Assembly (NCBI GenBank): GCA_028534125.1
Contig: CM052846.1
Location: 1,116,001-1,180,000, forward strand
Direction: 5' to 3'
Length of the DNA: 64,000 bases
DNA from: Lama glama
Taxonomy: Eukaryota
The number at the start of each line of letters is the position of its first letter. The first letter of the stretch is position 1. Position numbers and translations under genes: made by a program. Positions 35,651 to 50,408 of this stretch are shown in pieces. The notes under the pieces are model-generated. The model was not told the DNA's origin. It searched no databases and saw only the letters and a list, made by a program, of their open reading frames with translations.

Positions 35651-37351
35651 GCCCTCCCCCTCTCCCTCCTGTCCTGCCCCTGTCCTCCTCCCTCTGCCCC
35701 GTGGTCAGCCGCCAGCCTTCCTGGCAGCAAAGAGGATGCAAACGTTGTCAGCAGCAGACTCAGGATTTCACGTGGCCGCCAGACCTGGGGAGGGCGAGGA
35801 AGGCCTTCAACCCTGGAGTTTCCCGGGTCTCCAGGCATTTAGCAAACGAGATTTGTTCTGCTTTAAAACTCTCACCTGGTACTCAAAGCAGTGAAGAGAA
35901 CGGCATGTTGGCCCCCTTCCATGGGCTCGAGGTGGGGAGGCTGCTCAACAGCCTTTCCTAGCAAAGGAAACTGTGTTTGAGTGAATGCACGTTTTACTGT
36001 AAGATCGTGAAGACTCAGAGGAAACTTGACCTTCAAGGGTCCAGCCTGGATGTGCCCTGTGAAGCTCTGCCCTCCAGAGAGAGGGTCCCAGCAGGAGGGG
36101 CACTCAGGAAACGGGGCCGACCAGCTGTCCACAGGCCCAGAGCCCTGGGGAACCAGGTGCAGGCTGCAGGCCGTTGGCAGCGCGGGTGGGGCCGCGCAGC
36201 CTCAGCGACCAGAGCGTGCGCCCCAGGCCAGCGGCGCGGGCGCGCTGGGACACTTGCTAGCAATACAGAAGGCCCGGTGCCACGCCGGACCCCCACGTCC
36301 AAATCTCTCTCTGTATGCATGTATATGTATGTACGTACATATATACACATACACAAAATGTCTCACAAGGATTTACTTGCAAATTGAAGTTCAAGATCCA
36401 CTTAATTGATAGAAAGACTTGAAATTCATTTTCTCCCTCAGTGAGGTGGTGTGGTCGCAGCGACCCCCATTCTGTGTGAAGCACTCTGTTGCTTCCCCTC
36501 TCTTGGCCGTTGCAAGCCATGCGGCCTCTGCAGACCCAGGATGTTCTGTGAGTTGCAAGCTTCGTGAGCACCTGAGAATACGGCCATCAGAACGTCCCAG
36601 GAAGCCGGGTATTCAACCCACGTCAGCGCTGGCTTTTCACTGTGGGGCGAGGTCACCAGGGGTCTGTCCTTCGGGGCTCGCAGGTTAACTTTGTTTGCGA
36701 GAGTTTTCCGAGCACTTGCCCCGGAGCAAGAAGGGCTTTTCATTCCTCGCCCCCCACCCGCCTCCTCCAGGACAGTTTGAAACCTACCAGCTGCCTCGTG
36801 CGTGTTTGTGTTAAAGTGTTAAGAGGTCGCCTGTTCCTCCCACAGGTGGTCGGCCGGCTGTGTTCCGCCTGCAAAGGCACGCTGCGTGGTGACAAGTTGG
36901 CACGCCCGTGCTAGACGCCCTCACGTCATCCCCTCGCTTTTATTGTATTACTGATCGTGACGATTCTCTTCAAGAAACCATCAAAGCGTAGTAACGCGCT
37001 GTGGTGTTTCACATGTGCTTTCTTAGTGAAGCCTCATAATAGTCCCACCAGGAAACTAACGGGGCCCCTTTTAGCAAGTAGTCTAAAAAGTTAAAGTCAC
37101 GCGGACAAAAATGCATTGATTCAACCCTCAAGCAGGGAGTTTCTTTCTTCCAGCGCCAAATGTTGAGGCCAACCCAGTGTCTATCATCCCTGGCTTGGTG
37201 TTCAAACCCCCCCCCTTTTCTTAATTTTTTTTGAATCAAACCCGTTTTTGATGGCTCTTTGTACTCTTTCTCCTGTAAGCTCTGGACAGGAATGCAGTCA
37301 GGGCCCTGGTTTCACAGTTTCTCGCCTGTTTCCGCCTGTCTGTCCCCCCAG

Positions 37352-37489
37352 AGGGCCAGGGCTTTGTGAGCGAGGACGAGTACCTGGAGATCTCGGACAT
37401 CAAACGGGACCAGTCCGGGGACTACGAGTGCAGCGCCCTGAACGACGTGGCCGCGCCCGACGTGCGGAAAGTGAAAATCACCGTCAACT
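37352..37489 (+). CDS. OPCML: OPCML coding exon (C-terminal half of Ig-like domain 2): (E)[45 protein letters not shown]
   Basis: Translation matches the mammalian OBCAM/OPCML peptide as I recall it, with the Ig DxGxYxC-type motif. Pyrimidine tract plus cag| acceptor ending 37351; T|gtgagc donor at 37490; 138 nt, phase 1 to 1. Confidence 0.97.
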
Positions 37490-37833: not shown

Positions 37834-37954
37834 ACCCTCCCTACATTTCCAAAGCCAAGAACACCGGCGTCTCGGTTGGCCAGAAGGGCATGCTGAGCTG
37901 CGAAGCCCCTGCCATGCCCGTGGCTGAGTTCCAGTGGTTCAAGGAGGACACCAG
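37834..37954 (+). CDS. OPCML: OPCML coding exon (N-terminal half of Ig3): (Y)[39 protein letters not shown](R)
   Basis: cccacag|AC acceptor and AG|gtaccc donor; 121 nt, phase 1 to 2, in frame with both flanking exons; contains the Ig B-strand Cys and C-strand Trp. Confidence 0.97.
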
Positions 37955-38410: not shown

Positions 38411-38562
38411 GCTGGCCACCGGCCTGGAAGGCGTGAGGATCGAGAACAAAGGACACATATCCACTCTGACCTTCTTCAATGTCTCAGAGAAGGATTATGG
38501 GAACTACACCTGCGTGGCCACAAACAAGCTTGGGAACACCAACGCCAGCATCACACTGTATG
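38411..38562 (+). CDS. OPCML: OPCML coding exon (C-terminal half of Ig3): [50 protein letters not shown]
   Basis: cttctccttacgcag|G acceptor and G|gtgagt donor; 152 nt, phase 2 to 1; IgLON motif [14 protein letters not shown]; N-glycosylation sequons NVS, NYT, NAS. Confidence 0.97.
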
Positions 38563-39446
38563 GTGAGTGCAGGGCGCCCGGGCGTGGGGCGCGGCCGCGG
38601 GGGCGCGGGGACTTGGAGGGAGGGGGCGGGCACCATCTGCGTGGCTGGTGTCCATTGTGCTGCTCACCCCGCCGCCCTTAGATCCGCGTGCTCCCACTCC
38701 CAACATTCCCCCGGCACATGGCACGAGGGGTTCACCAGGTCTCCTGTCAAGTGAGGTTCCGTCTCACAAAAGGAGCAAAACCAGCTCTGAACCAGGCTGG
38801 CTGGTGGCTGCTGTAAGTAAGACAGAAGCACGGAGCAGCCCCGCTGTAGCGCTCTCTGTTGGTCTCAGGGTAAATTGGGTGTAATGTGGAGATCGCCTCC
38901 ACCAGAAGAGCCTACGATTCTGGGGCAACGTTTAACCAAGCAGCTGCCGCCGTCTTGATTCCCATGTTGATGGTCATGCCACGTTCTTGTCGCTGGAATG
39001 AACGGAGCAGGGGTCTGCGTCCTCGTCAGGGCGGCTGCTCTGTCCCAGCTGGACCGTCTGTCTCCTCTCTGAAGGTCTTCCCTCCCATGCGGGTGGAGAG
39101 GCCTCCAGAGCCGTGACGGCCCCCTCCGGGGAGCCCTCATCCCGCCCTCGCTCAGTTCTCACCCTGCCGTGTCCCTCCCCGTGTGCCACATGCCACCCTG
39201 CGGGCCAGCCCAGCTTGCTGTGACAGTCCGTGTGTGTGTCCGTGTTGATTTGCGGAGGTTCGGTCGGAGGGTTGCATCTGGTGAGGAGGAGGAACAGGTG
39301 TCCCTTGTTCACGTGTCCCTCAGACCCTGAACAAGCTTTCCGCGTGGACGTGAACTGAGCTTTGTCCACCAACCATCTGAAATGTGTGATCTGTGTCTTC
39401 TGTTTTCTCTCCGCATTGTGTGTGCATTGTGCTGTGTGTGTCTTAG

Positions 39447-39473
39447 AAATAAGCCCCTCACCAGCCGTGGCAG
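39447..39473 (+). CDS. OPCML: OPCML alternative 27-nt microexon encoding EISPSPAVA between Ig3 and the GPI signal
   Basis: tcttag|AAATAAGCCCCTCACCAGCCGTGGCAG|gtgggt; 27 nt, symmetric phase 1, no stop. Resembles the EISPSSAVA insert I recall from longer mammalian OPCML isoforms. TGC motifs lie just upstream of the 3' splice site. Confidence 0.85.
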
Positions 39474-39959
39474 GTGGGTAAGCATGTTCCTTCCTCCCCC
39501 TCCTGCCTGAATGCCGATGCTTTTGATTTTCAGCCTCCTTCAAAGACAGGCTCGCCTGCCCCACTCCCTGATGCATTTCTCCTTAGCGGTTAGACTGCAG
39601 GGGCTGGTGCGCACCGTTTAGGGGACAAGCATGCGGAGCATAGTGGCTTCCACCCGCATGCATAGGTCATGCCGCGGTACATCTCAGAGGGAGGAGTTTT
39701 CTGCCCCCAAAACAATAAGCTTCTCCTTGGTGGCCTTTAGGAGGAGTGGTGCTCTGCTGTTTCTGCACACAGCAGTGCCAGGGGGCACCCATCCCAGACA
39801 CCACAGGGATTATCAGATGATCAGGTGATCGTCTCCATGGAGAAGTCACCTTAATACGAATGTACAATTCTCCCAGCCCAAGGAAAACAGGGCTAACAGC
39901 TTAATTCCGAAAGCTTCATTTTGAAATAGAAGCACATGGGTGATTATTCATAATGATCC

Positions 39960-40135
39960 TAATAACACCTTCCGTTCACCCAATGTGTACTGGCTTCTGG
40001 GCGTGCTGGGCTGTGCAGGACAGGTTATGGCCCCATTTTAAAGATGAGTAAGGGGAGGACCCAGGAGGCTGGGTGATGCTGAAGGGAGCATGCGTGGCTA
40101 GCGAACAGGTGTGATGAGACCCAGACCCAGACCCC
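39960..40135 (-). mobile_element. MIR SINE fragment
   Basis: gttatggccccattttaaagatgagtaaggggaggacccaggaggctgggtga matches the MIR core. Confidence 0.55.
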
Positions 40136-40299
40136 TCCTCGGACACCGGTCTTTGCCCGGAGGGTGGCAGGGGCACCAGGGGTCACACAGCCACGCTCAC
40201 TCTCAGGCCGGATGCAGCAGCGCTGGCCCTTCCTCTGTTTCCTCGGTGCCAGCCTCACAGCTGTCCTTGCCAGGGTCAGTCAGCCACGCAGAACACGGC

Positions 40300-50307: not shown

Positions 50308-50408
50308 GGCCTGGAGCCGTCATTGATGGTGTAAACTCGGCGTCCAGAGTGCTGGCCGGCCTCTGGCTGTCGGGGACCCTCTTTGCTCACTTCTTCATCA
50401 AGTTTTGA
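50308..50408 (+). CDS. OPCML: OPCML terminal coding exon, GPI-anchor signal: (G)PGAVIDGVNSASRVLAGLWLSGTLFAHFFIKF*
   Basis: ctaaac branch-like motif, (ct)n tract and acacag|GG acceptor; TGA at 50406-50408. Small-residue omega region (N-S-A) plus hydrophobic tail ending AHFFIKF, characteristic of OPCML. Confidence 0.97.

Follow-up and report, generated by a model that had tools for sequence, protein, structure and literature searches.

The downstream member of a pair of donor sites, four nucleotides apart, behind a 27-nt microexon of llama OPCML is probably cryptic, a side effect of the loss of one base in this camelid lineage. It would be used as a minor leak at most, the upstream, in-frame donor staying the main one. 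The two sites, here called D1 and D2, lie within the 64,000 nt of Lama glama DNA that were analysed as a whole (the window), and positions are given along it. An earlier note had read the pair as a possible switch between GPI-anchored and secreted OPCML, which RBFOX binding could bias; the features it described are in place, whereas a switch of general meaning was not sustained, the D2 context AAGC being absent from all 17 orthologous records.

OPCML lies on the forward strand, and the window contains its 3' end, as indicated by tblastn with camelid OPCML and by AG/GT exon ends. Coding exons located by these means span 37352-37489 (second half of Ig2) and 37834-37954 (first half of Ig3), and are followed, on the same strand, by the exon for the second half of Ig3 (38411-38562), which ends in ITLY-G and is 100% identical to the Camelus ferus and C. 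dromedarius proteins. The cassette microexon occupies 39447-39473 on the forward strand, behind an acceptor AG at 39445-39446, and inserts EISPSPAVA into the stalk that links Ig3 to the GPI signal. The last coding exon, which carries the GPI signal, extends from its acceptor at 50308 to 50408 on the same strand, with the normal stop at 50406-50408; its other two frames end early, in AWSRH (stop at 50324-50326) and in GLEPSLMV. The microexon has the size (3-27 nt), the frame-keeping length and the conservation as a cassette by which neural microexons are recognised. TGC before its acceptor and GCATG after its donor were labelled as neural-microexon motifs, presumably of the SRRM4/RBFOX type. 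Its conserved job is likely a nine-residue lengthening of the Ser/Pro-rich stalk of GPI-anchored OPCML.

Three OPCML ends were predicted by in-silico exon joining, with the microexon skipped or included as 27 or 31 nt. The skip form has a 33-aa tail identical to that of alpaca P0121, and matches the C-terminal part of this record over 169 of 169 residues (167 of 169 for Camelus ferus). The gene name given in the earlier note was confirmed. The 27-nt form yields a 42-aa tail, 41 residues of which are those of C. ferus isoform X1 (P0124). Splicing from D2 would extend the microexon to 31 nt (39447-39477) and give a 16-aa tail ending in AGGAWSRH, with a stop at 50324-50326, inside the last coding exon and 82 nt ahead of the normal one. 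Averaged over the final 15 residues, hydropathy is 1.27 for the 27-nt form versus -0.06 for the 31-nt form: the predicted +4 product loses the hydrophobic GPI signal and keeps all three Ig domains, which finish ahead of the microexon (the match to structure 5uv6 reaches residue 374 of P0124). The junction arithmetic, the loss of the hydrophobic tail and the position of the new stop within the last coding exon had been proposed before, and all three were reproduced.

Positions 39471-39486 read CAG|GTGG|GTAAGCATG, with donors at 39474 and 39478 behind the 27-nt exon and a GCATG overlapping the second, just as the earlier note had them. D1 (CAG|GTGGGT, 39474-39479, forward strand) makes eight Watson-Crick and two wobble pairs with U1. 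D2 (TGG|GTAAGC, 39478-39483, same strand), strong in this lineage only, makes eight Watson-Crick matches in register, with A at +4 and G at +5. The +5 G is supplied by the GCATG at 39482-39486, which spans positions +5 to +9 of D2 and which we take to be an RBFOX-type motif. Two further GCATG motifs, at 39629 and 39656, follow on the same strand (39629-39660); three copies within 190 nt of the donor compare with 0.14 expected from the window density, with a post hoc P of about 4e-4.

Pairing was computed in a fixed register, using the U1 5' end of the same genome, by a model that omits U5, U6 and pseudouridines or other modified bases. D1 scored -13.0 kcal/mol versus -9.2 for D2, and the +4 states deduced for orthologues lay between -5.3 and -6.2 kcal/mol. 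Constitutive donors of OPCML scored -4.4, -7.1 and -10.3 kcal/mol; the donor of the Ig3 exon, GTGAGT, also has GT at +5/+6, and its +4 pseudo-donor pairs with U1 at -0.3 kcal/mol. Under this model, camelid D2 would be a plausible donor, though weaker than D1. There is one match to AGGTRRGTRAG in the window, where 0.30 would be expected, and 29 of 100 shuffles contain at least one; arrangements of this kind are uncommon per donor and common per genome. No second copy or haplotig of the donor site was found in the llama genome beyond the window itself.

The corresponding bases of other species were deduced from protein translations, not read directly. Gene models that read through the microexon donor were found for 11 proteins from nine species (four mammals, four turtles and the alligator). 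The mammalian ones continue with the peptide G-G-Y-S-M-F-L-P (mouse lemur, P0005 and P0158; guinea pig, P0030 and P0160; black rhino, P0065; dog, P0267), those of the turtles and the alligator with G-W-Y-S-M-F-L-P, the number of codons being equal as judged by eye. In all six of the mammalian read-through proteins a downstream ATG is located at intron position +12; in the window it is at +11. Searches with the antisense frame of the window returned five distinct proteins and one cluster member, none of them species-named. These antisense ORFs were predicted to start with M-x-Y-P-P-A; all six read M-L-Y or M-R-Y, starts which imply the GCAT core in the orthologues, and all six have a spacing of 3 nt, as against 2 nt in the window.

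Over the 17 orthologous records, the base equivalent to D2 +5 is A, C or T, and never G. The orthologous +4 site is GT-A-N-(A/C/T); because the orthologues have one extra base, their +4 site is without the +5 G, and because the window is one base shorter, it reads GTAAGC and D2 is strong. Judging from these deduced bases, the window has most likely lost one base at 39480-39481 (forward strand), where the others have one more, Y in the named species, and GTAAGC would have arisen by this 1-nt deletion. The missing base also creates a stop in the read-through frame (GGG TAA), after two codons. A second putative 1-nt deletion, placed approximately at 39496-39503 on the same strand, is suggested by the MFLP..CLNA peptide, which shifts frame again in the window; it falls about 20 nt past the first, within the same conserved element. 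In the same genome, the paralogous microexon of NTM, 36 nt long, has GT-A-Y at +5 to +8 of its donor and a dead +4 site, pairing with U1 at -0.7 kcal/mol.

As far as translated records tell, conservation does not extend to the strong second donor: other amniotes have its GT only as +5/+6 of D1, where it is part of the U1 consensus. Conservation of the second donor, which the earlier note had proposed to check, was thus found for the GT and not for the strong AAGC context. The conserved second GT was dropped as a test of a switch, a GT at +5/+6 being plain U1 consensus. From mammals to turtles and alligator, the intron start is conserved, with its GCATG and a pyrimidine tract, and reads G-[GW]-Y-S-M-F-L-P-S-[SF]-A-C in translation. 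In regulated GYNNGY donors the two sites are similar in strength and the intron downstream is conserved (Wang et al. 2014, PMC4267661). Conservation of the downstream intron is present here, and equally explained by the microexon itself; conservation of the splice site fails in 17 of 17 orthologous records. The human checks suggested earlier (Snaptron junctions, a CSF peptide GGAWSR) would most likely probe a different, weak site. The presence of GTGGGTAAG outside camelids, in many mammalian orders, would revive the idea of a conserved switch.

Gene models of nine species take the intron start at 39474-39560 for a read-through last exon (P0005, P0030, P0065, P0267, P0261, P0263, P0264, P0266, P0313). 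This stretch may have a regulatory role or provide soluble OPCML through intronic poly(A), or the read-through may be an artefact of modelling. The possibility that the read-through peptide has a conserved coding role was dropped, as tail length and sequence diverge past about 12 codons. Later lemur and guinea pig models end normally (P0153, P0156, P0157), and the turtle and dog read-through models coexist with normal ones.

Protein ends on record were classified for 415 proteins, most of them predicted models, taking up to 15 members from each large cluster (378, 263, 155, 146, 115 and 98 members). A recognisable Ig3 end was present in 397, 18 being without it; exclusion of 31 NTM-type sequences left 366 OPCML-type proteins, 126 of which contain the microexon. 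Among the matches listed, 169 of the 366 skip the microexon, and the 126 that include it comprise 105 in-frame forms, 11 read-through forms, five with another last exon and five alligator forms with a +4 acceptor. In-frame inclusion extends from mammals to lizards, human isoform c (P0143, NP_001306032.1) and C. ferus X1 (P0124, XP_032328425.1) included. The +4-donor product was found in 0 of the 126 microexon-bearing proteins among the matches listed, by a search pattern that recognised the window's own +4 form. Since frameshifted last-exon isoforms do get annotated, as in the five alligator cases, products of this class would be visible. None of the nine camelid OPCML records shows the +4 end; the three alpaca records are all without the microexon, and C. 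ferus X1 has it in frame. The C. ferus X1 model may not speak for the allele of the window. Pteropus alecto X7, which ends in AWSSH, was tried as a +4-donor product and rejected, its frameshift lying inside the Ig3 exon.

Some other variants were observed at the same gene. Camel models P0122 (C. ferus X3), P0123 (C. bactrianus X2) and P0003 (C. dromedarius) use other last exons after the Ig3 exon, which give short GPI-less ends. Each of the two alternative frames of the last exon (50308-50334) closes within 8 codons in mammals, and frameshifting cassettes in marmoset (P0195, P0197) and Artibeus (P0207) end in one of them, as GLEQSLMV. At the acceptor of the Ig2 exon, where 37349-37354 reads CAG|AGG, NAGNAG-like K/KE isoform pairs occur in many species (96 versus 144 of 283 records); the camelid records that include this segment show the longer form only (8 of 8), and a tandem acceptor of NAGNAG type may, from these records, have been lost in camelids.

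Donors shifted by four nucleotides form an established class, as the earlier note had stated (PMC2423196, PMC4267661 and PMC8055015), and GTGGGT at 39474-39479 has the GYNNGY sequence that defines it. In PMC2423196, 52,887 of 113,356 human constitutive donors (47%) carry GY at +5/+6, with another 5% having GY on both sides, and about 1.0% (530) of the +5/+6-GY donors pass the threshold for a strong site. GYNNGY splicing is described as mostly noise, with the first GY preferred when it is GT, and most GYNNGY events as NMD targets, 72-74% gaining a stop in the next exon (PMC4267661). Shifts of +4 are about half as frequent in significantly expressed minor sites as in non-significant ones (PMC8055015). 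No OPCML row was found in nine supplementary files of the TASS catalogue, whose full site tables may lie elsewhere, or in the supplements of Wang 2014 (file 1 being outside the search). The OPCML exon is also absent from 12 of the 19 supplementary files of PMC7935315, which do list NTM and LSAMP stalk exons. Literature searches gave no paper joining OPCML with a microexon, or with Rbfox and a cassette exon, and OPCML was not seen among the best 10 papers on exon inclusion and SRRM4.

According to the preferred explanation, the deletion would draw the G of the conserved GCATG into position +5 of a pseudo-donor such as half of all donors carry. U1 would still favour D1 over D2 in pairing, and neuronal RBFOX bound to GCATG would mask D2; as it would cover D2 and leave D1 free from -3 to +8, its effect would likely be to promote the anchored form. 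Any leaked +4 mRNA would escape EJC-dependent decay and likely be stable, and its product would be a soluble three-Ig dimer, in small amount beside the shed soluble OPCML. OPCML 36-316 folds and forms a dimer in solution, according to PMC6637204 (structure 5uv6). Use of the in-frame donor by C. ferus X1 and the lack of the +4 product among the 126 proteins listed argue for a minor leak. Against it, D2 is a credible donor, with eight Watson-Crick matches, +4A and +5G; one mark of regulated GYNNGYs can be recognised in the conserved intron, and the strengths of the two sites (-13.0 versus -9.2 kcal/mol) may be another. D2 use in camelid brain could be sizeable.

It is possible, if rather unlikely, that through the deletion D2 became a true competitor of D1, with sizeable camelid-only +4 use and a GPI-less OPCML that is tolerated or newly useful. 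The gain of about 4 kcal/mol in U1 pairing at D2 points this way, as do the GYGG/GT sites in Table 3 of PMC2423196, where the downstream donor is the major one in 11 cases versus 6, and the stop of the +4 form, which falls in the last coding exon. At least one lineage tolerates a frameshift at the orthologous microexon, judging from five annotated Alligator mississippiensis isoforms, and the soluble OPCML 36-316 described above folds and dimerises. However, D1 pairs better with U1, GCATG overlaps D2, and the +4 end appears in 0 of 9 camelid records. The conserved RBFOX-regulated switch of the earlier note, between anchored and secreted OPCML, is hardly credible in the face of a D2 +5 that is never G in orthologues and of a product found in none of the 126 microexon-bearing proteins listed. 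In its favour, conservation covers the second GT as well as the GCATG, and a secreted IgLON splice form, CEPU-Se, is said to be on record, but a GT at +5/+6 is mere U1 consensus.

It is very improbable that a base was dropped in assembly, or that its loss is an allele private to the animal sequenced, D2 then not being a strong site of the species. Such an explanation would fit two separate 1-nt losses falling in some 25 nt of an element otherwise conserved to reptiles, and no camelid version of the antisense ORF was matched in either protein search. On the other side, nearby exons are identical to alpaca over 169 of 169 residues, the first loss lies outside any homopolymer run, and six same-species runs hold 0.84-0.91 of the sampled words of the region, a measure too coarse for two bases. 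When X1, X3, X15 and X16, four of 24 runs of which none is labelled as brain, were compared over 39436-40299, contigs were obtained from X3 only: this RNA-labelled run has two intronic contigs, at 39566-39929 and 40097-40299, neither reaching the donor and both about 96-97% alike to the window, which may derive from pre-mRNA or from DNA of a related animal. The DNA pattern of the microexon had 0 matches in metagenome contigs. A scan for related loci gave four, the best being a bird-like OPCML with no microexon within 3 kb.

A further reading, which we regard as quite doubtful, takes the stalk microexon as an evolutionary hot spot for GPI-less OPCML, with an RBFOX-set neuronal +4 decoy in camelids. 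The routes in question would be the camelid +4 donor, the alligator +4 acceptor, read-through in turtle, dog, lemur and guinea pig, and an alternative last exon in a gecko, Paroedura, where a gene model joins the OPCML microexon to another last exon. In the alligator, isoforms X1, X2, X5, X6 and X8 (P0305, P0308, P0311, P0312, P0315) use an acceptor 4 nt inside a 24-nt microexon: a 4-nt shift is compatible with 39 of 39 codons, and the other shifts from 0 to 11 with at most 11 of about 40. The gharial and crocodile OPCML records among those listed are in frame.

The NTM paralogue was also located. Its 36-nt microexon (ELSEPTSSSLLQ), paralogous to that of OPCML, lies on the minus strand (G000:C31:1219547-1219582, L008), with the donor AAG|GTCAGTAT and a dead +4 site; the supplements of PMC7935315 include a human NTM exon of 36 nt. 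The NTM last exon and a second microexon were not found within the 45 kb examined. Equal-scoring copies of another IgLON Ig3 exon occur on opposite strands of one contig (G000:C95731:325285-325416 and 669826-669957), possibly by assembly duplication.

If D2 is a cryptic donor, its import is little: it would be one of the about 1% of strong-looking pseudo +4 donors, created by a recent deletion. It would also offer a clean natural test case for the birth of a tandem donor and its possible masking by an overlapping RBFOX motif. If the microexon is instead a hot spot, splicing would give a neuronal adhesion protein that is also a tumour suppressor a way to form a soluble, dimerising ectodomain, one that arose several times at one microexon, with a bearing on the origin of soluble IgLONs other than by shedding.

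The nearest counterparts of the llama exon are human isoform c and C. ferus X1, which have the same exon and in-frame donor, 41 of 42 tail residues being those of C. ferus X1; compared with other mammals that have the microexon, the window differs by an intron start one base shorter. With the predicted +4 form the alligator isoforms have in common a tandem site of 4-nt spacing, located at the orthologous microexon, a frameshift of the last exon and the loss of the GPI tail. They differ in that the tandem site is an acceptor, not a donor, that the shift lands in the other frame, and that they are annotated models. Chicken CEPU-1/neurotrimin reportedly has a secreted splice form, CEPU-Se (Lodge, 2001). 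Both cases give an IgLON ectodomain without GPI anchor by splicing, as a prediction for OPCML; CEPU-Se belongs to another gene, was experimentally shown, and no link to a +4 donor was seen. Shedding of the ADAM10/metalloprotease type also releases IgLONs, according to PMC10606101; the outcome is again a soluble three-Ig IgLON, but the route is post-translational and established. As shedding already makes soluble IgLON, there is less need for a splice route. With the GYNNGY delta-4 class (PMC2423196, PMC4267661, PMC8055015), OPCML shares two GTs 4 nt apart, a frameshift on use of the second, and the GYGG/GT subtype. It differs in that D2 is on the last cassette ahead of the terminal exon, so that the predicted product, unlike most, would not be an NMD target, and in that the strong second site is lineage-specific, with a use that is predicted only. 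D1 and D2 of OPCML are likely, from their sequence, a lineage-specific case of this known kind of donor.
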